Shown: positions 5,158-40,598 of the stretch, piece after piece
How the letters are laid out: the number at the start of each line of letters is the position of its first letter
How positions within the stretch are numbered: position 1 is the stretch's first letter
Source of the DNA: a virus
Taxonomy: Duplodnaviria > Caudoviricetes
Virus record (IMG/VR): IMGVR_UViG_3300000169_000002
Coordinates: 29,837 to 93,836 of that record
Strand: one strand, 5' to 3'
Length of the DNA stretch: 64,000 nt
The notes under the pieces: generated by a model
What the model was told of the DNA's origin: nothing
The model's database searches: none
Seen by the model: the letters and a program-made list of their open reading frames with translations, nothing else
Program-made: the position numbers and the translations under genes

Positions 5158-5652
5158 ATGAATCGAAAATATGTCCACATAAAAGAATATCAATTAACTA
5201 AATTAATTCTAGATTATATGAACGTGGACATGGAAGACGATGGCAAACTGTACCATGATGCTCTTCCATTGAAAAATAAGAGTAAATTTTTTACGCTGGT
5301 TCCTTATAAAGAAATGGGTAAGTTTAAAGACGATAATTTAACACCTATTAGACCATGTACTAATGTAAATCATTCTCAATATCTTATAAATTTGTTTTCG
5401 GAGATTAATGACTGTGAAAGTTTATTTGAATATAAGAATATGGAAGATAACGAATCCCTTCTTGAAGGAACTATGAAGTTGACTTATGGTAAAGAAGTAA
5501 AGAAAATTCATTTTTATGGAGTGAAAAATCTTAACACATTGATGGTAGGAGTTTTGTGTAAGATGGTCTTACCAAAAGATGTGTTTAAGAAAAATATAGG
5601 TAATATTTTGAAATTGGATCAAAAAATAACGGATTCTAAGAGGAAAGAATAA
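5158..5652 (+). CDS. Hypothetical protein
   Basis: ATG after a GAAGGGG RBS; stop overlaps the helicase start (TAATG). Confidence 0.7.
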   Translation: MNRKYVHIKEYQLTKLILDYMNVDMEDDGKLYHDALPLKNKSKFFTLVPYKEMGKFKDDNLTPIRPCTNVNHSQYLINLFSEINDCESLFEYKNMEDNESLLEGTMKLTYGKEVKKIHFYGVKNLNTLMVGVLCKMVLPKDVFKKNIGNILKLDQKITDSKRKE

Positions 5653-6857
5653 TGGCCAAAGATTATGAATGGACTAAAGATCAAAAAGAATGTATAAACG
5701 AGGCTGTTAAGTGGTATAAAAAACAGACAAAGCAAGTTTTTGAATATGCAGGTTGGGCAGGAGTTGGCAAAACAACCATCGTCCCACATATGATCAAAAA
5801 GATGGGTCTTGAAATGGATGAAGTCTTGGCTGTTGCGTTTACAGGAAAGGCTGCATCTAACCTGACCCTGAAAGGCATTCCAGCCACTTCAGCTCATGCA
5901 GGATTTATGGAACTAATTCAAGTTCCTAAAACTGATAAAGATGGTAATGTAATAAAAAAAGAAGGTAAAATTTTAAAAACATGGAAGTTTAAAAGAAAGG
6001 ATTCGATCCCAAGTCATATAAAACTTATTTTCATTGATGAAGCATATTTTCTGCCAAATGAGTTGGGGCAGATAGCCGAATCATTTGGTCTTCCAGTATG
6101 TGTTTGTGGAGATCCGGGACAACTTGGTCCAATCTACGGGAAACCAAGATACCTTTTAAAACCTGATTTCTTTATAAATGAAATTACGCGCCAAGGAAAA
6201 GAGTCAGGTATTATTGAACTTGCTACATTGATTAGAAATAATGAAGAACTTCCTTCGAAAAAGATGATTATAAAGAATGATGCTTTCATATTGCCAAAAA
6301 ATGAAGTTACAGATGAAATTCTTCTTAATGTAGATATTATTCTCTGCGGAAGAAATAAAACCAGAAATTATTTTAATAAAAGAATTAGAAATGACATTCT
6401 TGGAGTTAAATCAAAGCTTCCTGTGAAAGGCGATAAATTAATTTGCAGGCACAATTATTGGAATAGGACATTGGAAGATATACCTTTAACCAATGGGGTT
6501 ATCGGTACTGTGGTACACGATGTAGCAAAGTCATCTGTAGATTATAAATCTGGTGTAGTTAGGATAGATTTTATGCCAGATTACACTACAAAGAATTATT
6601 ATATGAATCTTCCTATAGATATAGATTATTTTCAAGAAGAATGTGGAATGCATGACGAGGAAGACGATTTTGAGTATGGTAAAAAATATGGAATAAAAAT
6701 GGAGCTTGCGAATGCAATAACAACTCATATTTCCCAAGGTTCAGATTTCCCCACAGTTTTATACTGGGATGAAGTTTATGGGGATCAAGATTTTATACGG
6801 AGATTAAGATACACGGGTTTAACCCGAGCAAGAAAAATCGCAATAATGGCTGTATAA
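5652..6857 (+). CDS. Dda/RecD-like SF1B DNA helicase
   Basis: Motifs GWAGVGKTT, IDEA, GDPGQLGP, AITTHISQGS and YTGLTRAR. Confidence 0.9.
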   Translation: MAKDYEWTKDQKECINEAVKWYKKQTKQVFEYAGWAGVGKTTIVPHMIKKMGLEMDEVLAVAFTGKAASNLTLKGIPATSAHAGFMELIQVPKTDKDGNVIKKEGKILKTWKFKRKDSIPSHIKLIFIDEAYFLPNELGQIAESFGLPVCVCGDPGQLGPIYGKPRYLLKPDFFINEITRQGKESGIIELATLIRNNEELPSKKMIIKNDAFILPKNEVTDEILLNVDIILCGRNKTRNYFNKRIRNDILGVKSKLPVKGDKLICRHNYWNRTLEDIPLTNGVIGTVVHDVAKSSVDYKSGVVRIDFMPDYTTKNYYMNLPIDIDYFQEECGMHDEEDDFEYGKKYGIKMELANAITTHISQGSDFPTVLYWDEVYGDQDFIRRLRYTGLTRARKIAIMAV

Positions 6858-18013: not shown

Positions 18014-18886
18014 ATGTCTCTTTATACACCCACGATTGTTACTAACAATAAACGCTATAGAGTTACCAATCGAGCTAAATTTATTCTTTCTACGTCTATC
18101 ATGTTTATTACTTTCATCACAATTGCTTATGTAGCATTTTCATTTATTATCAGTGAAATTAATGAATATCGCCAAGAAAAAGCTTATGAAGCGTGGCAAC
18201 AAGAACTTGAAATTCTGAAGAAAAAATATTCCTTCACAATTGGTGAAATTGAAATTAGTGCTACAAGTGCCGATGAGGCTCTGACAAAACTTAAAGCTCA
18301 AACTGAAGCTATTTTGATCGAGAAAAATAGTTTGATCGATGAACAGCAACAGATCATTTCTGGTTTGGAGGAAAAGTATGTAAAAGATATTTATGAGATG
18401 AAACAAGTGACCAAAGAAGAAGTCAAACTTTATAATCAATACGCATACGCACTTGAATACCCAGAGTCAGATATGACTATTGATGATCTGAAAATGATCA
18501 AAGAGATAACAGATGAAGAAAATATTAATATGCACCTTTGGCTTAGTGTCGTTGAAGTAGAAAGCGGATATAGATCTTATGTCAGATCAAGTTTGTCAAC
18601 GGCAGCTGGCTGGGGGCAAGTTCTTAAAGGAACTGGCGAGTTCCTCTATGAAGACTCTCTTAAACTTGGAAAATACAACCATCAGAAAATGGGTACAGAT
18701 AAAGAAATTAATGCAAGAATGAGTATCCATTACTTGGCAATGCTGATCAAAGAAAAGGGTAGTATCGAAAAGGCTCTTATCAGTTACAACGGTAATGAGC
18801 TTGGTCAACGGTATGTTACTCTTGTAAATAATACCCTGAAAAAGAACACAGGTATGACACTAAATGATATCAGCATAGCCAATTAA
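18014..18886 (+). CDS. Membrane-anchored lytic transglycosylase (SLT domain)
   Basis: N-terminal TM helix and coiled coil; VEVESGY, AAGWGQV and ALISYNG. Confidence 0.8.
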   Translation: MSLYTPTIVTNNKRYRVTNRAKFILSTSIMFITFITIAYVAFSFIISEINEYRQEKAYEAWQQELEILKKKYSFTIGEIEISATSADEALTKLKAQTEAILIEKNSLIDEQQQIISGLEEKYVKDIYEMKQVTKEEVKLYNQYAYALEYPESDMTIDDLKMIKEITDEENINMHLWLSVVEVESGYRSYVRSSLSTAAGWGQVLKGTGEFLYEDSLKLGKYNHQKMGTDKEINARMSIHYLAMLIKEKGSIEKALISYNGNELGQRYVTLVNNTLKKNTGMTLNDISIAN

Positions 18887-18995: not shown

Positions 18996-20192
18996 ATGAC
19001 CAATGAAATGAATGAAGCTGCAAAGATTTTGACCGAATCTCTGAAGGAGAACGTTTCGAAAATCCAAGCGAAAAAAGATCAACCGTTCCAAATGAAAATG
19101 AAAGCAAGCGTCATTGGTGTCGGCGCTGGCGGCGGAAATATTGCTCATCTTATGACGAAATATGGATACGATACCGCCGCGTTCAATACTACTCAAGCCG
19201 ATATGGTCGACTTGGATGTGAAACACAAGGTTGTGATCAAGGGCGTGAACGGGTCTGGCAAAGACCGCGCATTCTCGGCAACTGAGTTCAAGCGGTCGTA
19301 CAAGGCGTTCTTTGATCATGACGGAATCAAGCAACTTATGAAAAATGATCTGATCTTCATTGTCGGCACCGGTGGTGGCGGTACGGGAACGATCATTTCT
19401 GTTATGACCGCCGCTTATCTCAAATCCGAGTACCCCAACAAGACAATCGTCATGATTGGGATTCTCGGGTCTATCAAGGAAGATCTTATTTCTCAGAAAA
19501 ATATGCGTGAATTCATGTCCGATCTTGAAAACAAGCTGGAAGTTCCTTACCTGCTGTTTGACAACAACCGAGTGAAGAACAAGATCGGAGATGACGTTTA
19601 TGATCAAGTGAATAACGAGATCGTAAATGCTATCCGCATTTTGTCTAAAGAATTCTTTGTTGAAAACTCCAGGAGCAATATTGACGGTCGCGACTTCGCT
19701 CGGCTTACTTCTTTCAGGGGATTGATGTCAGTTGTGGCTATTGACAATCTGAATATCAGTGTGTCTGAGGAGCGGGTTGATTTGGTCAGCCGTGTTCGAA
19801 ATGCCATCGAAAATTCGACCGTTATTACCACCGAAGCTCCTGATGCTTATGGATTCTTTATGAATACAGATCCAGAGGTTTACAGCCTCATTGATATGAC
19901 GTTTGATGATGTGCAAAATGAAATCGCCGGTATTCCAACAAGCGGTCTCGTATTCCGGCATCTTCAAAACCGGTCCGGAGAAGGCCCTGAATTTGCAATG
20001 ATCATGACCGGCATGTCGGCACCGATTGCTCGGTTCAAAATGATTGAGCGTCGGATTGCTGAATATGAAAATGTGAAAGGAAAAGAAAGAATCCCTGTGG
20101 TTGAACGCGAATCGGAAGGCCCGCTGAGACTTGCCGGGGATGGGAAATCCGATGGCACTGGAAAAGGTGTATCGGCATTTGATAACTTCTGA
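18996..20192 (+). CDS. Tubulin/FtsZ-family GTPase (PhuZ/TubZ-like)
   Basis: Motifs GVGAGGGN, GSGKD, GGGGTGT signature, FDNN and T7-loop NIDGRDF. Confidence 0.9.
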   Translation: MTNEMNEAAKILTESLKENVSKIQAKKDQPFQMKMKASVIGVGAGGGNIAHLMTKYGYDTAAFNTTQADMVDLDVKHKVVIKGVNGSGKDRAFSATEFKRSYKAFFDHDGIKQLMKNDLIFIVGTGGGGTGTIISVMTAAYLKSEYPNKTIVMIGILGSIKEDLISQKNMREFMSDLENKLEVPYLLFDNNRVKNKIGDDVYDQVNNEIVNAIRILSKEFFVENSRSNIDGRDFARLTSFRGLMSVVAIDNLNISVSEERVDLVSRVRNAIENSTVITTEAPDAYGFFMNTDPEVYSLIDMTFDDVQNEIAGIPTSGLVFRHLQNRSGEGPEFAMIMTGMSAPIARFKMIERRIAEYENVKGKERIPVVERESEGPLRLAGDGKSDGTGKGVSAFDNF

Positions 20193-22001: not shown

Positions 22002-23369
22002 ATGAGAGGAATGATAAATTTGGGTCTCCTCGAAATGATCCAAAAACAGCGTAAGGCTGAGAAAAAATTTGACGATATTGTAATTAATGAAATTAGCTAT
22101 CCTACAGGTTTGCTTCCTCTTGATTACGCAAATGGTGTAAGAATAACATCTTATGATGAAAATGATAGACCGATTGCAAAATTTGATTCTATCGGTATTG
22201 TTGGTGGGACATTTGTTACGACTATCGGGATTTCCGGAACAGGTAAAACAGCACTTGCTATTGATATTGCAGTTTGTGGTATTCACAAATTTGGAGAAAT
22301 GTCTGCCGTAGATCATTTCGATCTTGAGCTGGCATCCACTATGCAAAGACCTCTTACGATCACCAGAATAAAACCATCTCTTTTGAAGAAAACTTATGCA
22401 ATTTATCGTGATCGTGCCGCAGAGGATGTTGTAGATATCTTCAAAACACACTGTCAATTGAAGCTCGATAATAGAAAACTTTTCACATATAAAACAGGCA
22501 TTCGCAATATGTTTGGCGAAGAAATTGAAGAGCTTTATCCGTCATTTTCTTTGATCGATTCGTTTGCAATGTTCAAATCTGGAGAACTTGATTTGGGCAA
22601 AAAGAAAGTTGAGGATATTACGAATAATATGCAAGCGGCAACTTCCGCAAAGTTTAATAAAGCTATTCTCTCTCAAATGCTTGCATATGGAAAGAAAGCA
22701 AATGTTGGCATTATTGCCGTTAACCATATTAACCAAGACGTAAACACAGGCTTCTTACCAAAGCCGAGTCAACATATGTATTTATCCCAAGGAGAAACGA
22801 TGCCTGGCGGCACAGCATCTTTGTACCTTGCGAATAACATCATCAAATTGAAACTGATTAAGAAGTACAATATCGACAAACCGGATACCATGGAATATGG
22901 AATTCCTGGTTTCTTGGTTGAAGCGAAATTTATCAAATCTCGTACAAATGCATCGAACGTGCCAGTTGAACTGGTATTTGACCATCGCAGAGGCGGATTT
23001 TCCAAAATCTTGACTCTGTTTAATTATGCTGTGAAGAATGAACTTCTTCTCGGGAATAACAGGGGATACTATCTGCCTGGTCTTGAAAGTGTTAAATTCA
23101 CGAAGAAAACGTTTAAAGACGTTGTTATAAAATCTCCTGAAGTTCTTGAAGCTTTGTATGAAGCTTGCAAACCTCATCTTGAAACTATGCTTTCTACCGA
23201 TATTGGAAGATTGAGTTCGTCCGAATCTGAAACCCAAAAAATTGATGCAATGTATCTGGCCCTTGAAGAGCATGAAAAAGATATTGAATTCTATAGGGAT
23301 CAAGGTTGGACAGATTTCATTAACGGTAAAACAGATTTTAATCGTAAAAAATTCTGGTACAAAAAATGA
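22002..23369 (+). CDS. recA: RecA/UvsX-like recombinase
   Basis: Motifs PTG..PLD, GISGTGKT, LIDS, AVNHI and PGGTASLYLA; the start may be 22011 or 22020. Confidence 0.85.
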   Translation: MRGMINLGLLEMIQKQRKAEKKFDDIVINEISYPTGLLPLDYANGVRITSYDENDRPIAKFDSIGIVGGTFVTTIGISGTGKTALAIDIAVCGIHKFGEMSAVDHFDLELASTMQRPLTITRIKPSLLKKTYAIYRDRAAEDVVDIFKTHCQLKLDNRKLFTYKTGIRNMFGEEIEELYPSFSLIDSFAMFKSGELDLGKKKVEDITNNMQAATSAKFNKAILSQMLAYGKKANVGIIAVNHINQDVNTGFLPKPSQHMYLSQGETMPGGTASLYLANNIIKLKLIKKYNIDKPDTMEYGIPGFLVEAKFIKSRTNASNVPVELVFDHRRGGFSKILTLFNYAVKNELLLGNNRGYYLPGLESVKFTKKTFKDVVIKSPEVLEALYEACKPHLETMLSTDIGRLSSSESETQKIDAMYLALEEHEKDIEFYRDQGWTDFINGKTDFNRKKFWYKK

Positions 23370-23448: not shown

Positions 23449-23808
23449 ATGTCTAAATTAAAGATTGATCAAATTGTAGAAGATTGTATACTTTTAAGCA
23501 CAAGCTTACCACAGATATCTGTGGCCGAGTGTATTGAATTGACAAAGATTGTTCATTCTCATAATTGTAGAGTATGCGATTACCCGGAATATCAAAGTAA
23601 ATTCATTCAACATCCTGAAGAAATTATTTTACATTTAAAATCAATTATCGTTAATAACGATTTTGAAGCAGTTATTTTTAATAAACGTGTAGCCGATAGG
23701 ACTTATAAAATAATTATTAAATTTATTCAATTAGATTCAAAAAATATGGCACAAATTTTGATATATAAAAGCGAACCTGACAGGAGGATTCCCGATGCTT
23801 CAACCTGA
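23449..23808 (+). CDS. Hypothetical protein
   Basis: Early promoter and AGGGTG RBS; overlaps the start of the RNAP gene. Confidence 0.6.
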   Translation: MSKLKIDQIVEDCILLSTSLPQISVAECIELTKIVHSHNCRVCDYPEYQSKFIQHPEEIILHLKSIIVNNDFEAVIFNKRVADRTYKIIIKFIQLDSKNMAQILIYKSEPDRRIPDAST

Positions 23809-25879
23809 GCAAATGGAAGAACTTGACCGAATTGCAAGTGAACTGAAAAACATTGACCATGCATATGGGAGCGGGTTATTCATCCCGTTGGGTAACAAAG
23901 TAAACTCTTCCCGTGCAGCTTTGGTTTATCAACAAATTGGCCAGTCTAAAAATTTGGAAAAGCCTGAAATTCCAAGAATCGTGACCGGCTATGAAAAAGC
24001 CTTTGGTGATAGATCCACGTCTTATCTCAAAGCTGATAGAAGATATGAAGTCGTCGAAAAGATTAGAAAATTCGATAATGATTATGTATATGCATTGGTA
24101 GTTAAAGAAGTAGGAAGAAACTATTATGACATTATTTTCAGAAATGAAGTTGAATCCTTCGCAGAATCTGCTGGTGTGCGAATGGATAATGAAAATATTG
24201 ATTCTAAGAAAGTTGGAGATATTATTGAGGAAGGAGAAATTCTCTATAAGTCCCGCTCCTATGATGAAAATATGAACTATCGCCTTGGTATCAATGCAAA
24301 AACCTTGTATCTCGTTGATCCGGCGATTGTTGAGGATGCATTTAGAATTTCTGATACACTTGCAAAAAGGTTGAAAACTACTGAAGTGAATACGTTCAAG
24401 ATCCCTAAAAATACTAACGATATTCTGCTTAACTTGTATGGGGATAATGAAGAATATAAAGCATTTCCGGATATCGGCGAAAAGGTAAAGAATAAAGTTC
24501 TGTGTGGGCGACGCAGAATTGACTATAACAATGCTCAATATATGCTGAAGAGCAAAAATCTTAGAAAAGAAATGTTTGGAGATACACTTTATTATACTGA
24601 AGGAACTGTCATCGATATTGACATCTTTTCGAACATCCCTATCGAAGAAGTTCCGAATGATAAAGTTAACAAACAAATTCTCAAGTATATGAAAATGATT
24701 AATAGATATTGGCAAGAGCTTAAGAGGGTATTGGGTCGAATCGTTGAAAATCCTGAAAACGAATATTCCGATCAGATCGGAATTACCTATGCCAGGGCTA
24801 AAGACGTGATGAGTATTGGTAAATATGTAAAATGGGATGACGACGGCTCGATTTTCGATAGCATGATTATCTATATTACTGTGGTGAATACAAAAAATGC
24901 TGTTATTGGAACGAAACTTGTGGGTCGCCATGGTAATAAAGGTGTCGTTTCAGAAATTGTTCCTGAAAAATATATGCCAAAGAGCGAAGATGGTGAACAT
25001 GCTGAAATTATTTTCAGTGCGCTCAGTGTAATTGGGCGACTTAATCCGTCTCAGCTTTATGAATTGGAATTGAACTGGATTGTTGATGAAATTCTATCTG
25101 GCGACGTTTCAAATAAAAAGAAATTTGAGGCTTTGTTGGATTTCCTCTCTATCTGTAATCCGGATCAGGAGAAACAAGTTAGAGAATTTTATGAATCTCT
25201 CAATAAAGAAGAGAAAGAAGAATTTCTTTCTCAAATAACTAAAGAATTCGTAGTATTTCAACCTCCGAGCATGTCTATTAGTTTTAAAAATTATGGTGAA
25301 CTGATCGAGAAATTCAAACCGAAAAAGAAGAAGTTCACCATTATGGACGAATCTGGTAAAGTGTTTAATATCCAAAGAAAACTTATTATGTCTGATACGT
25401 ATATTTATAGATTGAAACATGAACCGATTACAAAATTCTCGGTCAGATCTAAAGGTACGATCAATCCTAGAACTTTCCTTCCGATTAAATCTCATGCATA
25501 TAGCAGAGGGACTGCACTGTTTAACAATCAGGCAATACGGATTGGAAATATGGAAATGGATATTCTCAATTTGTGTAATGACCCTGCGGCTATTAACTAT
25601 TTCACGCGACTGTATTGCACATCTGTGATTGGGCGTCGCGAATTTGCACAGTTGTTGTATACAAACTTGTTTTCTGAAGATCTTGAAATTGAAATGGAGA
25701 ATCCAAAGTCCAGGGTTGTTGACCTGTTCAATGCTACATTTATGGTATGTGGTATGGCTTTGGAATTTGAATATGGAAAAACTAAGGATGTTGAGGAATT
25801 CTTCCTTGAAGAACTGAAACAGATGGACAAGAAAACAATCAAAGTAGTATTTGGTGGATGGGATAAATTAAGAGTATAA
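23795..25879 (+). CDS. RNA polymerase beta subunit, C-terminal half (probably non-virion RNAP)
   Basis: Motifs VEDAFRIS, GTKLVGRHGNKGVVS, SVIGRLN, YIYRLKH and IRIGNME; in an early operon. Confidence 0.9.
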   Translation: MLQPEQMEELDRIASELKNIDHAYGSGLFIPLGNKVNSSRAALVYQQIGQSKNLEKPEIPRIVTGYEKAFGDRSTSYLKADRRYEVVEKIRKFDNDYVYALVVKEVGRNYYDIIFRNEVESFAESAGVRMDNENIDSKKVGDIIEEGEILYKSRSYDENMNYRLGINAKTLYLVDPAIVEDAFRISDTLAKRLKTTEVNTFKIPKNTNDILLNLYGDNEEYKAFPDIGEKVKNKVLCGRRRIDYNNAQYMLKSKNLRKEMFGDTLYYTEGTVIDIDIFSNIPIEEVPNDKVNKQILKYMKMINRYWQELKRVLGRIVENPENEYSDQIGITYARAKDVMSIGKYVKWDDDGSIFDSMIIYITVVNTKNAVIGTKLVGRHGNKGVVSEIVPEKYMPKSEDGEHAEIIFSALSVIGRLNPSQLYELELNWIVDEILSGDVSNKKKFEALLDFLSICNPDQEKQVREFYESLNKEEKEEFLSQITKEFVVFQPPSMSISFKNYGELIEKFKPKKKKFTIMDESGKVFNIQRKLIMSDTYIYRLKHEPITKFSVRSKGTINPRTFLPIKSHAYSRGTALFNNQAIRIGNMEMDILNLCNDPAAINYFTRLYCTSVIGRREFAQLLYTNLFSEDLEIEMENPKSRVVDLFNATFMVCGMALEFEYGKTKDVEEFFLEELKQMDKKTIKVVFGGWDKLRV

Positions 25880-26042: not shown

Positions 26043-28241
26043 ATGTCTAAACTTTTAAAGAAGTCCAATAAACTTCTACGAAAAATCGAAGATGGAAAAT
26101 ATGTCTCAGCAGTTATTGGATTACAAGATCCAGATATTATTATGGATCTTCATGAAATAACTTTTAAGCCGGATAAATCTGTTACAAAAGAAGAGCTTGA
26201 GGCTGTTGAAAATATTCTTAAAGTAAGTAAAGCACTCTACGAACTTAATCAATATATGAGTGGATTTGTGTACAAACTTATGCCCGATGAAATGTATGAC
26301 AGGCTTATTGAGAAATATAAAAATATCACGGGCGGGAAAGAACCATTTCAATCTTTCATTCCATCTGGGATGAGAAGTGTGGAACAGGATTTTCCTGAAC
26401 TGTCTGGTACTTTGGATAAAGTTTATGAGATTTATGATACTACAAATAAACCTTCTTTGGAGAAGTGGCTCAGGAAAATAATGAAAGAACTTAATGTTAA
26501 AAAACTGAAGCTTCTTGTAACTCCGAAGTTTGATGGAACTTCCGTAACTGTAACTTATGACAAAAGTGAAAGTAAAAGCCATATTGTATATCCAGTAAAA
26601 GCATTGACTCGTGGAGATTTCGAAAGAAATCTTGGAGTTGATCTGTCTAACATTCTCAAAGGTGTGGATTCTGTTTATGTAACAAGTACCGATTTCTATA
26701 ACACTATTCCCAGAAGATTTGGGGTCCAGTATGAAGCAATGATTACTGAATATGGAAGGAAAAGACTTTCTGAGGTCGTAGGAATTAATTATTCTACAAG
26801 AAGGGCGGCAATTGCTTCAGCTCTTAAAAGATTGACAAATCCAAAAACAACTGTTGAGGAGGCAAAGGAAATCAATAAGTGTATAACCCTTGTCCCTCTT
26901 ATGGTTGACAATTATTTTATGCAGACATTCAGAAGAAAGATGAGTTTACACGATCTTATGATCGCAGTAAACTTTAATTTCTATATATGTGATGCTGAAA
27001 ACACACTTAGCTTTGAAATAAAGTCTATCCATGGAGATATTGATTATCTGCTTTCTAAATTTAAAGAAATAGTTGAGGACTATGTAAACAGAAGAAACAG
27101 TATGAACTATAGTATTGATGGATTGGTTCTGACTATTGACGATTATAATCATATAGCGAAACTTGGAAGATCCAGTAACAAGAATAAGTGGCAAATTGCA
27201 TATAAATTCGATGCCTTGACACAAAGAACGAGAATTACTGGAATCATTCCAACAATGGGAAAACAAGGTTTCATTGGAGCCAATATCACATTCGAACCAA
27301 TTGAATTTAATGGTGTTCGGTACGAGAAAGCTCCAGTGAATAATATTACAAGATTTCGTGAACTTGATCCTCATATTGGGGATGAAGTGATTGTATCCTA
27401 TAACGCTGATGTTATGGGGTATATTTATAAAGATGAAACATGTACGCCTAGTAAAAATGGGGAACCTCTTGAACTTCCAACCCATTGTATAAAATGTGGC
27501 GAACCACTAACTGTGGCTAAGGATATGTTGAAATGTGTGAATGATGACTGTCCTGGCCATAAAGTGGGAAAAATTCTTGAGACCATCCGTATATTTGACC
27601 TGGACTTTTTCGGCGAAGAAACTGCAAATGACCTCGTCGATAAAGCTGGAATCTCAGATACAATTGAGTTCATACAAATGAAATATGAAGACTTGGCTAA
27701 AGTCCTCAAAGGTCTTAATTTGGAAAAAGCCTGGGAAGAGTTTCAAAATAAAATTAAAGCCCCGATTGAATATCCCAAAGTAATTGACCTTTTGAGGATT
27801 CCAAGTCTTAGAACAAAAACTGCTGAAAAGATCCTTGAAGATATTCCTATAAACCAGCTCGAAGAATGGATGAAAACTGGTAATGTCAAAGAGTTATATT
27901 CCGCTCTGAAAAAAGTCAAAGGAATTGACAAAAAGGCAGATGAGTTTGCGATTGCATTGGTAAATGCATATGAGGAATTTTCACAACTCAAGAAACTTCT
28001 TAACTGTGTAGACTCTAGTGGTAAGGAATACAATAAAGTTATTTTGGTATCAGGTTTTAGAAGCAATTCCGAATTTGACTCTATCTGCAAAAAGTTAAAT
28101 TTTAAAGTAATTGAAACAGGTAGTAAATATGATTTATTGGTAGTAACTCCTGAGAGGCTCGATGGGAAGAAAGCATTACAGGCAAGAAAGAAAGGCATTC
28201 CTATAATGCTTCTTTCAGAGTTCATCAGGACATATTCTTAA
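26043..28241 (+). CDS. ligA: NAD-dependent DNA ligase
   Basis: Motifs KFDG, ALTRGD, IDGLV and IAYKF; C4 zinc finger; C-terminal BRCT-like region. Confidence 0.9.
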   Translation: MSKLLKKSNKLLRKIEDGKYVSAVIGLQDPDIIMDLHEITFKPDKSVTKEELEAVENILKVSKALYELNQYMSGFVYKLMPDEMYDRLIEKYKNITGGKEPFQSFIPSGMRSVEQDFPELSGTLDKVYEIYDTTNKPSLEKWLRKIMKELNVKKLKLLVTPKFDGTSVTVTYDKSESKSHIVYPVKALTRGDFERNLGVDLSNILKGVDSVYVTSTDFYNTIPRRFGVQYEAMITEYGRKRLSEVVGINYSTRRAAIASALKRLTNPKTTVEEAKEINKCITLVPLMVDNYFMQTFRRKMSLHDLMIAVNFNFYICDAENTLSFEIKSIHGDIDYLLSKFKEIVEDYVNRRNSMNYSIDGLVLTIDDYNHIAKLGRSSNKNKWQIAYKFDALTQRTRITGIIPTMGKQGFIGANITFEPIEFNGVRYEKAPVNNITRFRELDPHIGDEVIVSYNADVMGYIYKDETCTPSKNGEPLELPTHCIKCGEPLTVAKDMLKCVNDDCPGHKVGKILETIRIFDLDFFGEETANDLVDKAGISDTIEFIQMKYEDLAKVLKGLNLEKAWEEFQNKIKAPIEYPKVIDLLRIPSLRTKTAEKILEDIPINQLEEWMKTGNVKELYSALKKVKGIDKKADEFAIALVNAYEEFSQLKKLLNCVDSSGKEYNKVILVSGFRSNSEFDSICKKLNFKVIETGSKYDLLVVTPERLDGKKALQARKKGIPIMLLSEFIRTYS

Positions 28242-28257
28242 TTTAAAACAATATATT

Positions 28258-28555
28258 AGGATGCGGAAAAGTGTGATGAGTCATATTAAGCAAGGTTAAG
28301 GGGAACCGTCGAATCCGGCATTTGGTTCTTTTGAAAAACTGAGACTTCGAATTATCCCGCCTAATACGATAGGGATGATTATAGCAATCTTGCCTCGGAT
28401 TTTTCCGTCTGGGTTAATTAGCTGTGGGCTATTAACTGTCGCGGGAAGAGAAGAGAAACTTGCTGAAGTTCTCAGAAAAGAGCGGCAATGCTGGTAGATG
28501 GTAAATTGTTTGGTGGGGGTAAGTTAATAGACTCATTATCACACTCCGCTATCCT
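28258..28555 (+). ncRNA. Putative ~300-nt structured non-coding RNA of unknown class
   Basis: Late promoter at 28247-28258; 5' and 3' ends pair; more than 10 nested helices with G·U wobbles only in + orientation; 3' hairpin at 28565-28591; no credible ORF. Confidence 0.75.
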
Positions 28556-28564
28556 TAATATAGA

Positions 28565-28591
28565 GGCCAGGAGTCTTATAGACTCCTGGCC
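28565..28591 (+). terminator. Hairpin closing the ncRNA unit
   Basis: GGCCAGGAGTC-TTATA-GACTCCTGGCC; weak U-tract. Confidence 0.65.
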
Positions 28592-28812
28592 CAATCACTT
28601 TAAAATTTCAATTTTTAGAGAAGTATATATTATTGTATTGGTAAAGAAACATCTTTATCGAACTATAGTATTAATTATGGGGTGATGTTTATAGAAATAT
28701 AAGTGAATAAAATTCACTTACTTTTGGAAAATATATATTATTACATTGTGAAAGACACAATATTAGCAATAATATGTGTCTTTAAATATCAACAAATGGG
28801 AGGAAAAAAGAA

Positions 28813-29631: not shown

Positions 29632-31512
29632 TTGCCGAACTATGTTAGTCAATTGGTAGCTAAAATTTCTGATAAGATGGCTGTAGATGTTAATGATGAC
29701 CTGTTTGATAGAAGAAAAGGAAAACAAATCTGGGAGTTCATTGCAGATGATTTAAAGTCTATCGAAATGCTTCCAGGTATTTTCGTAAGGGATGTCGAAT
29801 ATATTAGAGACCCCTCGAAAATAGATGTCAGACTCAATATCAGAAATGTCAAGAATAAGAAAATTATAAAGAACCGAATAGAGAAGCTTATTCCGGTTCA
29901 ACCTGACGTTTTTGACGCGATCAAATTCACTGTGGATATAGTTGGAGAGAAGAAAGTTGAAAATATAATTCTTCTCCCAAAATATATAGATCGTTATCAT
30001 TTTATGATTTCAGGAAACAAAACTCTTGCAATGTTTCAAGTGGTTGATAATGCCACTTATAATCGAAAAGGTGAAGTTATCCTGAAGTCTAGAATACAGC
30101 TGAGACTTAGTAGAGAGGATAAGAGAAAAAGATACCATTTGATTTGTGTAGCGTCCGGGCAAGAATTTAAAATCAATAATCTTGTGGTCAATCTGTTCAA
30201 GAAAACTTTCAATCCTCTCTATTATTTTGCAGCCAAAAAAGGAATTCTCGGGACTATCGACTTTTTCGGTTATACGAAATTTCTTAATGTAGTGACCGAA
30301 GTCAAGAATCCTGATTTGTTCTATTATTTCAGGGCAAATTCCAACATTCTTCTCGAAGCAGAGAAAACCCTGTTTGAAGAGGATGGGTTCCTCAGAACGT
30401 TTACTGGAATGCTCTGTCAGATCTTTAATAGTAGAAACAAAATCGAAGATATTTATGATGAAGAGTTGTGGGTTAAAAGACTTGGTTCTCTTTTCACATC
30501 AGCCGCTAAAAATCAATTGAATAAAGGTTATGACGTTCTCAAATCATTTGTAAACGTTCTCGATTCTACGACTCAAAATGCCCTTCGTATTGATTACAAA
30601 GACAAAGCTGATATTTATTGTGTGCTTCGTTGGATGATGAGAGAGTTCAACGAACTTAGGAACATGGATAATAATTCTCTTCTGAATAAGAGAATTCGTA
30701 TAAACGAGTATATTGCTGCCTATTTTGGCCGATATCTCAAAGATAAAGTAAACTATGCTCTCAACTTGAAGCCGTATGATAAAGAAAAACTTGCAAAAAT
30801 CTTCAAGTTTGATGAACATATTCTTATCAAGTCTTTGTTCAGAGGAAAGAAACCATCTCCTCTATTTAGGTACAATATTGATATCAATGATCTTCAGGCT
30901 TTGAATGGTCTGAAATTCTCGTTTACAGGTATTCAAGGTCTCCCATCTGATAAAGTTAAAGATGAGCAACGGGATATTTATCCGAGCCATCTTGGGAGAT
31001 TTGAACTTAATGCTATTTCATCCAGCTCTCCTGGTATCTCCGGCATGCTTACTCCGTTCTGTAAGATTTATGATGGTGGGTACTTTGGAGAAGCGGAAGC
31101 TATTGAAAAGCCTTATGTCAAGAAGCTCTATAAGAGAATGGAAAAGATTAAAGAAAATGACCAGCTCTATGGAATGATCAAAGCTCACTATAAGAAAATT
31201 GAAGAGGAACATGAAAGACGCAAGTTCCTCATAAAATATCAAGATTTCAGAAACGAAAAAGGTTATATTCAGATTACAAAACCGAAATATGTGCGTAACG
31301 ATAAAGGATATATCCGCGTAGAAAGATTTGTTGACCCTTCAAGCTATATAAGAAATTCTAGAGGCTATATAGTTGTCAAACGCAGATTCCAGCTTATTAG
31401 GTTGAAAGTAAGATTAAAACCTGAATATATGTCTGGAACGTATATTCGCAACAATGATGGGTTTATTGAAATCAAAATTAATGAAGACGGCCCGTTTAGT
31501 AAAAAAAGATGA
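29632..31512 (+). CDS. RNA polymerase beta subunit, N-terminal half (probably non-virion RNAP), with repeat-bearing C-terminal tail
   Basis: Motifs HFMISGNK, LLNKRIRINE and RDIYPSHLGRF...SSSSPG (RpoB rifampicin-region homologue). Confidence 0.85.
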   Translation: MPNYVSQLVAKISDKMAVDVNDDLFDRRKGKQIWEFIADDLKSIEMLPGIFVRDVEYIRDPSKIDVRLNIRNVKNKKIIKNRIEKLIPVQPDVFDAIKFTVDIVGEKKVENIILLPKYIDRYHFMISGNKTLAMFQVVDNATYNRKGEVILKSRIQLRLSREDKRKRYHLICVASGQEFKINNLVVNLFKKTFNPLYYFAAKKGILGTIDFFGYTKFLNVVTEVKNPDLFYYFRANSNILLEAEKTLFEEDGFLRTFTGMLCQIFNSRNKIEDIYDEELWVKRLGSLFTSAAKNQLNKGYDVLKSFVNVLDSTTQNALRIDYKDKADIYCVLRWMMREFNELRNMDNNSLLNKRIRINEYIAAYFGRYLKDKVNYALNLKPYDKEKLAKIFKFDEHILIKSLFRGKKPSPLFRYNIDINDLQALNGLKFSFTGIQGLPSDKVKDEQRDIYPSHLGRFELNAISSSSPGISGMLTPFCKIYDGGYFGEAEAIEKPYVKKLYKRMEKIKENDQLYGMIKAHYKKIEEEHERRKFLIKYQDFRNEKGYIQITKPKYVRNDKGYIRVERFVDPSSYIRNSRGYIVVKRRFQLIRLKVRLKPEYMSGTYIRNNDGFIEIKINEDGPFSKKR

Positions 31513-31520
31513 AAATAAAT

Positions 31521-31558
31521 AAGCCAGGGAGATTTCCTCCCTGGCTTTATTTTTTTTT
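31521..31558 (+). terminator. Intrinsic terminator
   Basis: AAGCCAGGGAG-ATTTC-CTCCCTGGCTT followed by a T-run. Confidence 0.85.
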
Positions 31559-34969: not shown

Positions 34970-35064
34970 AAAATTAGTTTTTGAGAAAACAACATAAAAT
35001 CGAGGTTTTCAAAAAACCAACAAAAAATAAATATTTTTTACTTACTCTAAAAGGAGGAATTGCA

Positions 35065-36708
35065 ATGTCGGTAAATGGAGATTACCTTGAGCTCACTCTG
35101 GGTATGTCCACTTCGCACGACGAGCAAGTGGCTAACTTCTATAGCCGCCTGTTCGAGTCGTATGGACATAACCTGTCCGGCGATCTGGCGAGTATTTTCA
35201 AAAGCCGGGAGAGCGCACAAGCCTTCTTGGAAACCGTCAACCAAATTCTGGAGGATCAGCAATACGAAGGCAGCGGCCTGCGCGATGCTGTTCTCCGGGA
35301 AGACGCCGCCGCTCGTGCCATTGCTATGCAAAACGTGGTCAACGAGCTGCTGACTGAGTCCACCCAACAAGGACTCGCCGCACTGAAGCCGATCTCCCTG
35401 ACCTCGTTCGGCTTCCAAATCCGGTCCTATGTCAAGGCCGTGATGCACCGTGCGGTCAAAACCATTCAGGCCGAAAAACCGGTCTTCAAGATCACGGAGC
35501 GCAAGCAATACGTGATCGACGTGCAAGGCAACAAGCACTACTTCGTCGACGCCTTCAACCGGAACTCGAACCTGGTGAACAACATTCATCAACGGTTCGA
35601 ATTCACGGTGAACGTCCCGTCCCAGGCCTATGACATCTTCACCCAGAATTCGATCGACAGCCGGAACAAACTGGCCATCGACATTTCCGTGAAAGCATTC
35701 ACGGCGGTTGATGAAAATGGAGATCCGATCAGTACCGACAAACTGAAAATCGTTGGCCGCAGCCGTCAAATTGACATCGAAACTGGTCGCTTCAGCGTCG
35801 ATGTTGTATTTGGCGACGATGAAACGAAGGCTACGATCATGGGCGAAATCGATTTCGAAAATGCGATGGTGACCAGCATCGGCGCAACGTCGGCGCAAAT
35901 CAAAACGGTTACCTTCGCTGCCCGCCTGTCGTCCGAAACCCATCTGAAGGCGCTGGTGACCGGCTTCGAACACAAGCACACCAACGTCGCAATTCCGGAC
36001 GGCGCTCATATCGAAGTGAATCCGTCGGTTGAGTTCATCGATGATGTGAGCCGTATGCTCGGCGTCAACGTCCTCGAAGAATACACCAACCAGATGGGTC
36101 AACTGGTGGAGCAACTCGAAGACCGCTCCATCTACGAATACCTGAAGTCCCTGGAAGGCGAAGCAATTCTGACGAAAGAATTCGACATCACGCCGGATTC
36201 TGGATTCGCACTCGGTCGTGAAGAATGGCTGCGCCGCGAATTCCATCCGTTCATCGAACGGATCTGCATCCGCCTGAAAGCGGAACTGCAACTGGATGAT
36301 TGCCACTTCCGTGTTGTTGGCAACCCGATCGACATTCGTGTGCCGAACTCCTCCGGCGAACAATACATCTTCCGCCGGAACCAAGACATGACCGGCAACT
36401 CGCAAGTCAACTATGACTTTGCGGTGACGACGACCGGCAACACGATCTTCTACCTGTCGACGGACCGGGTGCCACCGGGTAAGATCTATGTGAACTTGAT
36501 CCCGAACAGCATCCAAAACAACATGATCACCATCAACCACTATCGTTATGCAAACTATGTCTCCAACAAATATCGCAGCAGTGTGAACCCGGCGCTGCCT
36601 GCCATCATGGTGTCCAGCCGTTATCAAACGAAGGAATACTATCCTGTGATGGCTGTCATCAACATGAAGAACAACTACAACGACTATTACACTGGTTTCT
36701 ACAAGTAA
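35065..36708 (+). CDS. Major capsid protein
   Basis: 547 aa; very GC-rich codons; AAGGAGG RBS; propeptide-like N-terminus with LxE sites; position after protease and scaffold. Confidence 0.8.
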   Translation: MSVNGDYLELTLGMSTSHDEQVANFYSRLFESYGHNLSGDLASIFKSRESAQAFLETVNQILEDQQYEGSGLRDAVLREDAAARAIAMQNVVNELLTESTQQGLAALKPISLTSFGFQIRSYVKAVMHRAVKTIQAEKPVFKITERKQYVIDVQGNKHYFVDAFNRNSNLVNNIHQRFEFTVNVPSQAYDIFTQNSIDSRNKLAIDISVKAFTAVDENGDPISTDKLKIVGRSRQIDIETGRFSVDVVFGDDETKATIMGEIDFENAMVTSIGATSAQIKTVTFAARLSSETHLKALVTGFEHKHTNVAIPDGAHIEVNPSVEFIDDVSRMLGVNVLEEYTNQMGQLVEQLEDRSIYEYLKSLEGEAILTKEFDITPDSGFALGREEWLRREFHPFIERICIRLKAELQLDDCHFRVVGNPIDIRVPNSSGEQYIFRRNQDMTGNSQVNYDFAVTTTGNTIFYLSTDRVPPGKIYVNLIPNSIQNNMITINHYRYANYVSNKYRSSVNPALPAIMVSSRYQTKEYYPVMAVINMKNNYNDYYTGFYK

Positions 36709-36826: not shown

Positions 36827-38017
36827 GTGAATAAATTTGTGTTTGATTTTTTGGCGGCGACGTTTGATCAATTGAAAACCAACAAGGATGAAACCAACAA
36901 ATACCTTCTTGAAATCAAAAATATATTAAATAAAGAAATTTCTATCCCATGTGTCAATGTGGTAATTAACAATTCAACAGCTGCTCAAACGTTTTATGGT
37001 ATGATCGTATTTCCAAAAACTATTCTTTCTGAAAATAAAGGGATCGAAATCAAGAGTTATGCAGTTGAGATCCAAGAAAGTCTCCTCAAACTTCTTACGG
37101 GCAAACAACTTGCTGCATTACTTATTCATGATCTCTCCCATAACGTTTTAACTTATACTGCAATTGAAAGATTTAAAGCAGCAATTTTCCATGCCTGCAA
37201 AATGTCTAATATGAAAGTTATTGAAGTGCTCTATAACTTGGATAGTAAATGTAGAGATCTTGCATTGCTGGATATCGCTAACAGGACTTATAAAGATCCT
37301 GTCTTGCCTGATATTGAAATTTATGAAGCAGACAGGATTCTCATCGATATGGATATTTATGAATACTTCAACTCTGCTATTCAAGTTATTCGAAATAATG
37401 TAGAAGAATTTGATCTTTCAAATCCTGAGCATCAAAACATTGCAGACAATTATATTGCTACCGTGATGATTAAAATTGTAATGGAGAAAGCGAAAGGCAT
37501 TGTCCGTCAATATAATTGGCATAGAACCTATGTGGAAAAAACTTATGACACAAAAATTTTCAAACTTTTCCCAAATATTGAAATCGAAGTTCGTGAAGAA
37601 TTATTCGGACAAAAGGTTAGCGAAATCGAATATCTCAAACCATATGAACTTTCAATGTTGCACGAGTCGGTAATTCAGACTATTAAGCAAAAACAGGGTA
37701 CTGACGAAGCATCTGTAATTATTGAAGGTGCCATTAAAGGCAAACGTCCAAGTCTTACTGCTTTACAAAAAGAATATGATATTATCACCTTCAAGATGCA
37801 AAGCATGTCCTCGAACTACGAGAGACTCGCCCTTCTTGACAGGGTCTATGATAATATCTTCCTTATTGAAAAATATCTTGAAAAGAATCCCGATGATGAG
37901 CCTGTCAAACAATATCTTGCGAAATTTGTTGAACTTCCAAAAATTATGAAAGATCTTAAGCCTAGTAAGAAAAGATATGATGTATACGTTGAATATCCTG
38001 CAGGATATGAAGGGTAA
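36827..38017 (+). CDS. Probable virion protein with degenerate zincin-like motif
   Basis: LAALLIHDLSH...EADR; lies in the head cluster; GTG start after GGAGG. Confidence 0.55.
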   Translation: MNKFVFDFLAATFDQLKTNKDETNKYLLEIKNILNKEISIPCVNVVINNSTAAQTFYGMIVFPKTILSENKGIEIKSYAVEIQESLLKLLTGKQLAALLIHDLSHNVLTYTAIERFKAAIFHACKMSNMKVIEVLYNLDSKCRDLALLDIANRTYKDPVLPDIEIYEADRILIDMDIYEYFNSAIQVIRNNVEEFDLSNPEHQNIADNYIATVMIKIVMEKAKGIVRQYNWHRTYVEKTYDTKIFKLFPNIEIEVREELFGQKVSEIEYLKPYELSMLHESVIQTIKQKQGTDEASVIIEGAIKGKRPSLTALQKEYDIITFKMQSMSSNYERLALLDRVYDNIFLIEKYLEKNPDDEPVKQYLAKFVELPKIMKDLKPSKKRYDVYVEYPAGYEG

Positions 38018-38420: not shown

Positions 38421-40598
38421 ATGCTTAAACGCCCTTATAGTAAACACGAAGAAAAATATCATATACATTGGGAAACCTCAAATGTGAGTTTCTTAAAAGT
38501 GGCTCTTCTTTTGAAGAAAATGGGAATAGAAAATTATTATTTCATGCTCAAGTTATATGATGAAGATTTGAAGCATATCGATCCTTATGACCCGAATATT
38601 ACTCCTGAGCAAATGGCTAAAGTTTTGTTTGAAGTTTCTCGTAACTATTATTATTTTCTCAGAGAAGTTGCAAGGGTGCCTGAAGAAGGTGCTCCGACTG
38701 AGATTGGTGGAGGTAGTCCATTCCAACTCCATCGTGGTAACCTTGCACAAGCATTCTGTTTTGAGCATAATATAAGTCACTATTTGGAGCTCCCACGTCA
38801 GTTCGGTAAAACCACCGGGGCTTATCAGAGATATTTATGGCAATTCTCCTATGGAACTACCTCATCTACTACTATCTTTATGAACATGGATCACAAAGCG
38901 GCTATTGCGAACTTAGACCGATTGAAAAACGCTCGGTCGCTTCTTCCTGAATATATGCAAATGGTATTTACTCTTGATGAGAAAACTGGTCAACTTAAGA
39001 AAGATGTTGACAACGTCTACGAAATCAAAAATAAGAAGCTTAAAAATACTATTATCACCAGAGCTGGTGCCCGAAACGTCCAATCCGCCGAACGTGTCGG
39101 TCGCGGTCTTTCGGTTCCGTCTATATGGTTTGACGAGTTTAACTTTATGCTTCTCAACGAGACGATTCATGCTGCTGCTGTCCCTGCATTCTCCAAAGCA
39201 TCTGAAAACGCTGCCAAAAACGGAAAACCATATGCTATTTGTATAACTAGTACTCCTGGTGATCTTGGGACGGCTCACGGAGCATATGGTTTTGACTTGA
39301 AACAAAAAGCAGCCAGGTTTACTGAATCCTTATATGACATGGACCCGGATGAAATACAAACCTGGTTGCAAAAGAACTCTAGTAATGGAATGATTTATAT
39401 AACATTCTCTTTCTTGCAACTTGGCAAGGGTAGAGAATGGTTTGAAGAACAATGTAAACTGATGAACCATAACTGGATGAAGATCCGCCGGGAACTTCTT
39501 CTCCAGTGGAACAAAGCATCTAACAATTCCCCATTTAGCCCTGAAGATATAGATGAGCTTGATACTATGGCAATTCCTGCAATTGACACAATTAAAATCA
39601 ATAAATATTACGAAGTTCTTTTATATAGAAAAGTAGATCCTTACAAACGATACTTAATAGGTGTCGACGTATCTAAAGGTATTGGTAAAGATGCGACGGC
39701 TGTAGCTATAGTTGATTCACAAACCTTAGAAATAGTTGGCCTCTTTATCAATAATACAATTAGGTCCAAAGAATTAAAACGTTTCTTGTTAACATTGGTC
39801 TTGGACCATTTCCCGAATTCGGTGCTGATTATAGAAAATAACAGCATCGGGGATGCATTAATTGAAGATCTGAAACAAACTGCTCTTAAACACCATCTGT
39901 ATTTCGATTATGCTGTAAGACTTGCTGAAGAAACTCGCAAAGATGGTATAATCGAAAAGAAAAAGAAAAACAGAGTCATCTATGGTCACGAGGTAACGTC
40001 TGCTACTCGTCCTAAGATGATGGAACTTCTGCTTCAATTTGTTTCTAAACATAAGCAGAAAATTAATGCTAAAGAACTTGTTGACCAAATTAGACATCTT
40101 GAGTATAAAAATGAAAATAGAATCGAGCATGCCAGTGGTCAACATGACGACGCAGTATTTGCATATCTGGCATGTATCTACATCATGTTTTATGGGAAAA
40201 ATCTCCCAAGATTTGGATTATTTAATGCGTATAACTTTGATGGCGACTCCATTGAAGAGAAATCTACAGGCAAGAAGCACGTACTTACCAATACATTTAA
40301 GAATAAACGTATTGTTGAATTGGTTGAATCTAATCCATACTTTTCTGGTCTGTTTGAGGATTTGCTATTCGTTGAAGATGAGGATAAACAAGTATGGCAA
40401 GAGATTAAAGAGCTCGAAGACGACGATAATGATGGAATCAGCACTCTTTACAGAGCAGATGGATTTGCTGCGGCTAAGATTAAGAAGAATGCTTTTAGAG
40501 AACTTAATCAACGAGCTATGGGAAGAATTTATGGCGAAGGAACTAAAAATTCTATATTTGGGGTGTCGGATAGATATTCCGGAAGCACATGGTGGTGA
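38421..40598 (+). CDS. terL: Terminase large subunit
   Basis: Walker A LPRQFGKTT, Walker B WFDEF, ITSTP; nuclease motifs GVDVSKG, IENN and HDDAVFA. Confidence 0.92.
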   Translation: MLKRPYSKHEEKYHIHWETSNVSFLKVALLLKKMGIENYYFMLKLYDEDLKHIDPYDPNITPEQMAKVLFEVSRNYYYFLREVARVPEEGAPTEIGGGSPFQLHRGNLAQAFCFEHNISHYLELPRQFGKTTGAYQRYLWQFSYGTTSSTTIFMNMDHKAAIANLDRLKNARSLLPEYMQMVFTLDEKTGQLKKDVDNVYEIKNKKLKNTIITRAGARNVQSAERVGRGLSVPSIWFDEFNFMLLNETIHAAAVPAFSKASENAAKNGKPYAICITSTPGDLGTAHGAYGFDLKQKAARFTESLYDMDPDEIQTWLQKNSSNGMIYITFSFLQLGKGREWFEEQCKLMNHNWMKIRRELLLQWNKASNNSPFSPEDIDELDTMAIPAIDTIKINKYYEVLLYRKVDPYKRYLIGVDVSKGIGKDATAVAIVDSQTLEIVGLFINNTIRSKELKRFLLTLVLDHFPNSVLIIENNSIGDALIEDLKQTALKHHLYFDYAVRLAEETRKDGIIEKKKKNRVIYGHEVTSATRPKMMELLLQFVSKHKQKINAKELVDQIRHLEYKNENRIEHASGQHDDAVFAYLACIYIMFYGKNLPRFGLFNAYNFDGDSIEEKSTGKKHVLTNTFKNKRIVELVESNPYFSGLFEDLLFVEDEDKQVWQEIKELEDDDNDGISTLYRADGFAAAKIKKNAFRELNQRAMGRIYGEGTKNSIFGVSDRYSGSTWW

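Follow-up and report, generated by a model that had tools for sequence, protein, structure and literature searches.

A Portable Peptide Tag on the RNA Polymerase and Helicases of an AR9-Related Jumbo-Phage Lineage and Its Predicted Docking on a Candidate Hub Protein

The DNA analyzed here is a viral stretch of 64,000 nucleotides (the window; positions 29,837 to 93,836 of IMG/VR record IMGVR_UViG_3300000169_000002) on a 93.8-kb contig from a distant relative of the AR9/PBS1 jumbo phage group. In this window, the N-terminal half of the β subunit of a non-virion RNA polymerase (RNAP; the protein is hereafter β-N) ends in a tail with four tandem copies of a short peptide motif, which recurs in a DnaB-like and in a superfamily 2 (SF2) helicase. 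We find that this motif, hereafter the tag, is portable, restricted to one clade and, as sequence comparison of orthologues indicates, conserved at the protein level; that its carriers act on nucleic acids wherever a function is assignable; and that it co-occurs and is syntenic with the gene for an acidic protein of 235 amino acids (aa), here called protein X. The tag is predicted to form a β-hairpin with an interface to X, and we consider it moderately probable, from sequence comparison and modeling, that such a portable hairpin docks DNA enzymes on X as a common hub.

The Tag in the Window and in Related Phages

Residues 76–487 of β-N match AR9 gp105 (PDB 7S00 chain c, E 2.9e-48), and a tblastn search with β-N returned AR9 g105, which the AR9 locus annotates as a non-virion RNAP subunit, and the Machias protein annotated as "non-viral RNAP beta N-terminal". 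By homology over this RpoB-like core, the protein belongs with the AR9-type non-virion RNAP β N-halves. Beyond the core starts a C-terminal extension of ~140 aa that has no counterpart in AR9 or in the Staphylococcus jumbo phages; because the β-N proteins of AR9 and of Staphylococcus phage Machias end shortly past the core, with short, acidic and motif-free ends, we regard the extension as lineage-specific.

The sequence-only reading of this DNA had placed four in-frame copies of the tag in this tail, at positions 31243, 31288, 31345 and 31441 of the open reading frame at 29632–31512, and six copies in total in three enzymes, and both the positions and the protein assignments were confirmed. 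A six-frame scan of the whole contig with the core pattern Y[VI]RNxxG[FY]Ix[IV] returned these six copies and none beyond them: four on the β-N tail, one on the tail of the DnaB-like helicase, and one (YVRNKNGFITI, at 57281, residue 372) in an insertion of the SF2 helicase, just ahead of the RecA2 strand KLLILG. A degenerate seventh copy, FVRNREKIDYVNL, lies inside the same insertion, 20 residues upstream of the full copy. The chance check that had been proposed along with the reading gave no match to the strict pattern in 2000 shuffles, compared to six in the real contig proteome; the tag is thus not as frequent in shuffled sequence.

The Arg codons of the four tail copies are AGA, CGT, AGA and CGC and the Gly codons GGT, GGA, GGC and GGG, identity between copies at third codon positions is 0.18–0.45, and across 36 copies the invariant positions use all six Arg, both Asn, all four Gly and all three Ile codons. 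Because the codons differ between copies, the conservation lies at the protein level, as had been argued from the Arg and Gly codons, and the differing codons and third positions rule out a DNA repeat. In the alignment of 31 copies, the consensus is [YF][VI]R[ND]xxG[FY]Ix[ILV], in which neither a Q anchor nor an FF or LF pair appears. The helicase copies and β-N copy 4, which is the β-N copy closest to the single helicase copies, have in common an extended pattern of 17–20 residues, G.Y[VI]RN..GFI.I..NE.F. The net charge of tag plus flanks averages +2.8, and runs of K/R often follow.

In keeping with the earlier remark that the motif was not recognized as a described one, the 120-aa β-N tail gave only a noise match in Pfam (E 0.19) and nothing in PHROGs, and the full carrier proteins match Pfam and PHROG families through their catalytic cores only. 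Resemblances to NUMOD4, GIY-YIG, YD repeats, cold-shock RNP1, HU arms and LIR motifs were set aside, as the spacing differs. AlphaFold2 (AF2) models of the 150-aa tail show a hairpin at each NxxG turn, with a predicted local distance difference test score (pLDDT) below 50 and with no packing or sheet between copies; at this confidence the hairpins are not suited to a fold search, and only the helical linker that joins the core to the tag array (Table 1) is modeled with confidence.

The census of related phages covered six complete relatives (G001–G007, 207–256 kb, without gaps), whose proteomes were scanned with a hidden Markov model (HMM) of the tag. Across seven proteomes, the HMM gave 52 matches of at least 4 bits, 31 of which are its own seeds and 21 of which are new, compared to 2.8 in shuffled and 2 in reversed sequences. 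All carriers to which a function can be assigned act on DNA or RNA, in agreement with what the sequence-only reading had led one to look for in such a scan; several carriers are unannotated, and no structural annotation was obtained for any carrier. Fourteen β-N orthologues at 54–84% identity have three to four copies each, with copy 1 kept as [FL]RNxxG[YF]IxI in all β-N orthologues, and in β-N relatives at 27–42% identity the copies take variant forms, for example R[DN]x[DE]GFIxL or xxGK[FY]VI. Overall, the motif is kept in orthologues to an identity as low as ~28%.

Within the window clade, the same three enzymes are tagged at the same sites, and one genome adds a 125-aa HNH-endonuclease-like carrier. 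In G003 and G004, β-N has three copies and DnaB has the tag in its tail; a PC4-like single-stranded DNA (ssDNA)-binding protein has it as its C-terminal tip, and some small or coiled-coil proteins are carriers as well. The G006 clade (30% identity) has ~16 carriers of a variant tag that is followed by a proline, among them NAD ligase (at the N-terminus), DnaB (tail), the SF2 helicase (N-terminus), the PC4-like protein, β-N, an HNH endonuclease, a reverse transcriptase and a Bro-N/KilAC protein. The ligase is tagged only in the G006/G007 clade, where the variant has an acidic turn (RDEDG, RDDDG). In the PC4-like proteins of G003 and G006, the tag forms the C-terminal tip behind an acidic linker, whereas an acidic tip of the classical kind is found in G005, a relative without the tag. 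The DnaB-tail tag stands in the same place in the G001–G004 orthologues and appears as the variant RDEDGFIMLIP in G006. In the SF2 helicase, the tag-bearing insertion is found in G000–G002, is missing from the aligned orthologues of G003, G004 and G005, and is replaced in G006 by a tag at the N-terminus; because the site of the SF2-helicase tag differs between clades, the tag behaves as a portable module.

AR9, Machias and G005 gave no motif matches above the reversed-pattern control. A strict codon-level scan of IMG/VR, with a pattern that covered only copies with TAT and AGA codons, returned only this clade and ~5 further matches consistent with chance. The sequencing runs that contain the sequence are manure and compost metagenomes, with no RNA run among those listed.

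Several features of the carriers stand apart from the tag itself. Past the tag, the DnaB tail (window 4282–4332, + strand) has a second conserved segment, FF.[NK]K.EW.[DE]F, in G000–G002, which may be a separate interaction element. The 674-aa SF2 orthologue of G006 (L092:9276-11300, − strand) gives a weak Hint/homing-endonuclease signal (PF05203, E 8.3e-4, below the Pfam cutoff) along with terminase- and primase-type PHROG matches, and its sequence suggests that this helicase contains an intein. The reverse transcriptase of G006 (L095:1492-2799, + strand; PF00078; phrog_1423, 7e-84), encoded in a jumbo-phage genome, has two C-terminal tag copies.

Protein X and Its Predicted Complex with the Tag

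A presence/absence comparison returned three gene families that occur in all five tagged genomes (G001–G004 and G006) and are missing from G005, and X is one of these. A profile search found X in G007 as well, and not in G005, AR9 or Machias. G007 had at first been taken as untagged; on inspection, it has variant tags on β-N and on other proteins, and finding X there before its tags were recognized is an unplanned successful prediction. The G006 and G007 clades, and two metagenomic lineages besides, share the gene order ligase–X–β-N, and, among the genomes checked, X is present where tags are. The other two families with this phyletic pattern, represented by a protein of 396 aa (36827–38017) and an SLT-domain protein (18014–18886), were set aside as hub candidates on context alone, the former as a neighbor of the capsid gene and the latter as lysin-like.

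X has no Pfam or PHROG match, no PDB sequence match by single sequence or profile, and no tblastn match among GenBank phages, and ten of its distant relatives likewise fall into no Pfam family. In BFVD, it has two matches only, both to uncharacterized phage proteins, and the ESM Atlas yielded no match of use; in public data, the family comprises ~65 protein-length clusters at 50% identity. The AF2 model of X is a two-lobed α/β fold (pLDDT 88.9, predicted template modeling score 0.87), for which a Foldseek search of the PDB gave nothing at E ≤ 0.001. In VIA-align, the best structures are ciliary microtubule inner proteins (Z 8–9), which is curious for a tubulin-encoding phage, followed at a lower score by single-chain IHF (2iif; Z 6.5, root-mean-square deviation 4.0, 127 residues), and the HU, IHF and Hbb monomers score Z 3.5–3.7.

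From the model, X is possibly a single-chain HU/IHF-like pseudodimer, although its membership of the HU family is not established. All 19 X relatives are acidic (pI 4.4–5.0), with both sheet regions net negative, which excludes a basic HU-type protein with DNA-binding arms; PF00216 gives no match to X, and a search for that family finds AR9 g103 and nothing in G001, G005, G006 or G007; the X profile aligns to AR9 HU in hhalign with a probability of 0.5%. With its acidic character, no PF00216 match and a profile not significantly similar to that of AR9 HU, X is doubtful as a DNA-binding protein. We note that one or two tandem X paralogues, all acidic, lie directly upstream of X in G002–G004 (L104:8425-9042, L074:15233-16000 and L064:12706-13470), and that the window has a gene-free gap of 355 nt (28247–28601) between the ligase gene and X, where those genomes have an X paralogue. 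In a distant X-bearing lineage (L147:2934-3242 / L148:2861-3247, + strand), the gene directly downstream of β-N encodes an Acb2/Tad1-hairpin domain, of the anti-CBASS/anti-Thoeris sponge family.

We modeled X (19-row alignment) in complex with 37 residues around tag copy 4 (7 rows), with three controls, of which two paired X with an unrelated peptide and one paired the tag with an unrelated protein. The pair gave interaction prediction scores from aligned errors (ipSAE) of 0.88, 0.88 and 0.89, compared to 0.01 for the best of the three controls and 0.00 for the copy-4 peptide on the unrelated protein. The mark for this score comes from a calibration, only roughly valid with custom alignments, in which 58 of 80 solved complexes and 2 of 110 mismatched pairs reached it. 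The runs have at least 86% of contacts in common, and the partner peptide reaches a pLDDT of at least 68, compared to <50 for the free tail.

On the tag side, the modeled interface is the motif itself, comprising YMSGTYIRN, DGFIEIKIN and GPF (residues 599–607, 609–617 and 620–622), with the lowest expected error at F611, I612, I614, K615 and I616. The contact residues of X in the model (15–24, 27–40, 111–118, 138 and 155–169) take in the conserved F17-x-C19-E20 and the near-invariant loop DADKGVELD; among core positions of X, F17, C19, E20, D33, G159, L162 and D163 are conserved. The low pI of the X family and the positive mean charge of the tags and flanks are complementary.

Docking on X and Alternative Explanations

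In the mechanism that we propose, an AR9-related jumbo-phage lineage would have fixed a β-hairpin tag of ~11–20 residues, with the core [YF]-[VI]-R-[ND]-x-x-G-[FY]-I-x-[ILV] and often a basic or NExxF stretch behind it, on the termini or surface loops of enzymes that act on phage DNA. The free tag would be disordered or marginally folded; upon docking, its second strand (G-F-I-x-I) and its first strand would insert in a groove of X formed by a small hairpin (17–29) and the conserved loop DADKGVELD (153–163). As a hub, X would gather the late (non-virion) RNA polymerase, the replicative helicase and the SF2 helicase, and, in relatives, also the ligase, the ssDNA-binding protein and enzymes of selfish elements, with the three to four tandem polymerase tags giving multivalent attachment of high avidity. 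Docking would thereby recruit or co-localize the enzymes, X itself being attached to phage DNA, to a factory or to nothing. The earlier suggestion of a hairpin-sized docking or addressing tag on a common hub gains support from conservation, portability and the nature of the carriers, and from the AF2 hairpins and the X model; as to the hub, a candidate has now been found in X, a predicted binder, which is none of the examples then offered (clamp, ssDNA-binding protein (SSB), scaffold or compartment).

A number of points weigh against docking on X. The complex score is a measure of model confidence, obtained with shallow custom alignments for one tag and one candidate hub. Conservation in X is no higher at the interface than elsewhere (mean entropy 1.34 vs 0.93), the difference being non-significant and overall opposite to that expected. 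The phyletic test of X involves ~ten non-independent genomes, and two other gene families have the same phyletic pattern. X is acidic, and its attachment to DNA or to a structure is putative, as is whatever the tagged enzymes would be recruited to. Finally, the ligase, topoisomerase II, UvsX and the other RNAP subunits of the window clade are untagged; as only three enzymes of this clade are tagged, docking would be no general requirement for acting on phage DNA.

The comparative evidence for the tag would fit equally well if its receptor were not X but a different protein of phage or host, or if the tag admitted proteins to a compartment or condensate for replication/transcription. The carriers resemble the cargo of the chimallivirus nucleus (helicase, ligase, non-virion RNAP, homing endonuclease; PMC13282480), these phages encode a PhuZ/TubZ-like tubulin, and two more clade-specific genes follow the same phyletic pattern. 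However, searches at the sequence level with phmmer and tblastn for chimallin (phiKZ gp54) and PicA (gp69) in seven genomes (the six complete relatives and the window contig) found no homologue (best E 0.45; phmmer E >0.4), AR9-like phages are reported to be without chimallin, most replication enzymes of the window clade are untagged, and the X–tag model passed its mark by wide margins, with the same peptide scoring nothing on an unrelated protein. We therefore consider a receptor other than X unlikely, while giving it more weight than the three alternatives that follow.

The hairpin could instead be a small nucleic-acid-binding arm, with an aromatic and Arg face and a basic flank, that adds non-specific affinity for DNA or ssDNA, as the nucleic-acid-binding nature of all carriers with an assignable function, the charge of tag and flank (~+2.8, with frequent K/R runs) and an inferred likeness to β-ribbon or RNP-like surfaces might suggest. 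This we judge distinctly improbable: the acidic turn of the G006/G007 variant disfavors DNA contact, the PC4-like protein holds its tag behind an acidic linker, the classical position of a protein-interaction tip, and one would not expect a generic DNA anchor to be limited to a single lineage and to accompany one accessory gene. That co-occurrence would also be unexplained if the tags paired with each other as hairpin–hairpin β-zippers, giving co-assembly without a separate hub. Homotypic pairing would account for the same tag on the PC4-like ssDNA-binding tip and on enzymes that would be recruited to ssDNA, and the tandem RNAP copies would allow multivalency, but AF2 left the four copies unpacked, and we give this explanation very little credence. 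We give even less to the tail being an element internal to the RNAP, for example one that holds the split β halves together or contacts the template, with the helicase copies as unrelated look-alikes. The extension does lie directly behind the split point, after a conserved fork-loop/region-D-like segment, where an inter-subunit contact is plausible; however, the AR9 enzyme assembles without such a tail, and the helicase copies have the extended pattern of copy 4, kept in orthologues, which is not chance.

Returning to docking on X, a further-reaching version, which we put forward as a speculation with rather low probability, is that tag and X form a virus-specific addressing system, in which X marks or nucleates a replication–transcription factory, whether located on phage DNA or acting as an acidic scaffold or condensate. 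Acquiring the tag would then be enough for a protein to be admitted, and among those admitted would be the homing endonucleases, the reverse transcriptase and the anti-repressor-like proteins that selfish elements encode. If true, the tag would be the linear "localization signal" of a chimallin-less jumbo-phage lineage, physically coupling late transcription to the replisome.

The features discussed here are collected in Table 1, together with other genes of the window. In addition to these, the window encodes a tubulin/FtsZ-family GTPase (18996–20192, + strand; PF00091, 1.7e-07, with a weak PhuZ PHROG match), which is conserved throughout the seven related genomes, among them the untagged G005, in a lineage without detectable chimallin. 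A 400-aa protein (54734–55936, + strand) has a ThyX domain (Thy1, PF02511), which would be unexpected if this AR9-like phage substitutes uracil for thymine.

Table 1. Coordinates of the Tag-Bearing Genes, the Tag Copies, Protein X and Other Genes in the Window
Feature	Position	Strand	Remarks
Non-virion RNAP β subunit, N-terminal half (β-N), 626 aa	29632–31512	+	AR9 gp105 orthologue; phrog_2943
Helical hairpin linker from core to tag array, ~residues 488–535	31093–31236	+	Two helices in AF2, pLDDT ~78; kept in orthologues
Tag copy 1, DFRNEKGYIQI, residues 538–548	31243–31275	+	23 bits with HMM m2
Tag copy 2, YVRNDKGYIRV, residues 553–563	31288–31320	+	AF2 hairpin, turn at NDKG, low pLDDT
Tag copy 3, YIRNSRGYIVV, residues 572–582	31345–31377	+	AF2 hairpin
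Tag copy 4 (YIRNNDGFIEI) with extension, YIRNNDGFIEIKINEDGPF, residues 604–622	31441–31491	+	
Intrinsic-terminator-like hairpin, GCCAGGGAG/CTCCCTGGC, with T run	31523–31558	+	Read from the sequence; would close the β-N transcription unit
Protein X, candidate hub, 235 aa	28813–29520	+	pI 4.8; directly upstream of the β-N gene
DnaB-like replicative helicase, 650 aa	2380–4332	+	PF20307 divDNAB (4.9e-19), PF03796, phrog_19
DnaB-tail tag, YVRNSNGFIVI (from 4249), with extension, YVRNSNGFIVIKMNESF, residues 624–640	4249–4299	+	32 bits; preceded by charged linker
SF2 (ResIII/DEAD-type) helicase, 525 aa	56168–57745	+	PF04851 (1.3e-10), PF00271 (Helicase_C), phrog_16
SF2 insertion of ~30 aa between RecA-like domains	57221–57331	+	One degenerate and one full tag, YVRNKNGFITINRNERF, residues 372–388
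Multisubunit-RNAP subunit gene, untagged	23795–25879	+	phrog_3295 or phrog_3015 (pair listed jointly)
Multisubunit-RNAP subunit gene, untagged	50433–52529	+	phrog_3295 or phrog_3015 (pair listed jointly)
Topoisomerase II	10317–12686, 13198–15624		
UvsX	22002–23369		
NAD ligase	26043–28241		
Dda-like helicase	5652–6857		
Major capsid protein	34981–36708		
Terminase	38421–40598		

Comparison with Known Recruitment Systems

Recruitment by a hub and a short motif organizes replication in cells and in model phages, as seen for the sliding clamp PCNA and the PCNA-interacting peptide (PIP) box, for the SSB tip, and for the T4 clamp tails. To our knowledge, no system of this kind has been described in the jumbo phages related to AR9/PBS1, which have their own multisubunit RNA polymerases and no chimallin nucleus. 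A transferable tag of 11–20 residues with a predicted receptor would be a testable handle on what unites late transcription, the replicative helicase and repair enzymes in these phages, and it bears on how selfish elements in phage genomes reach that machinery, as well as on the role of the new, Pfam-less family of X. The tag might also serve as a tool, in the form of a minimal peptide that targets cargo to the phage machinery, and its presence could aid the annotation of DNA-acting proteins of unknown family in these genomes.

Clamp-binding motifs are the PIP box on PCNA clients, QL[SD]LF on clients of the bacterial β clamp, and the C-terminal tails by which T4 gp43, gp33 and gp55 bind the gp45 clamp, a hub that serves both replication and late transcription. 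Like the tag, these are short portable peptides at the termini or in the loops of many unrelated DNA enzymes, with one hub for all. Their sequences, however, are unrelated to that of the tag: the 31 copies lack the Q anchor and the FF or LF pair of the PIP box (Qxx[ILM]xx[FY][FY]), of QL[SD]LF and of a T4-type hydrophobic C-terminal tail, and the clamp motifs bind as extended or 3-10 peptides where a hairpin is predicted here. X, acidic and of 235 aa, has no similarity to the clamp fold, and as many as four copies stand in tandem on the RNAP core subunit itself. Searches with PF02768 (β clamp) and PF02916 (T4 gp45) gave no match in five complete relatives; they covered phage-encoded clamps, and a divergent one could escape them.

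The C-terminal tip of SSB is acidic and ends in IPF, and the acidic C-terminal tails of the T7 gp4 helicase and of the T7 SSB, gp2.5, bind T7 DNA polymerase. Similarly to the tag, these are tail motifs on a replicative helicase and an ssDNA-binding protein, placed after a flexible charged linker, and in relatives the tag lies exactly at the PC4-like C-terminal tip, after an acidic linker. An SSB-type acidic tip is set aside by the charge of the tags and flanks, the tag being neutral to basic and predicted to form a hairpin. As the enzymes and the SSB-like protein bear the same tag, they would be co-clients of a third protein and not mutual partners.

The chimallivirus nucleus, with its ChmA shell and PicA/Imp1, has a similar client list (non-virion RNAP, helicase, ligase and homing endonuclease), in a phage family that is related through its multisubunit RNAPs, and a tubulin is encoded here as well. 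In contrast, the present lineage has no chimallin or PicA homologue and uses a linear, transferable motif, whereas chimallivirus import has been reported to use no terminal linear signals (PMC13282480).

Phage HU/IHF proteins, finally, offer a likeness to X in position and in modeled fold. The AR9 HU gene, g103, lies two genes upstream of g105, and X adjoins β-N; the AF2 model of X resembles single-chain IHF and, at lower scores, HU monomers. X differs from these DNA-binding proteins, which include SPO1 TF1, in being acidic where they are basic and in being without PF00216. While a member of none of these systems, the tag–X pair is predicted, by analogy, to work like recruitment through the PIP box and PCNA, the SSB tip, and the gp45-binding tails of T4.

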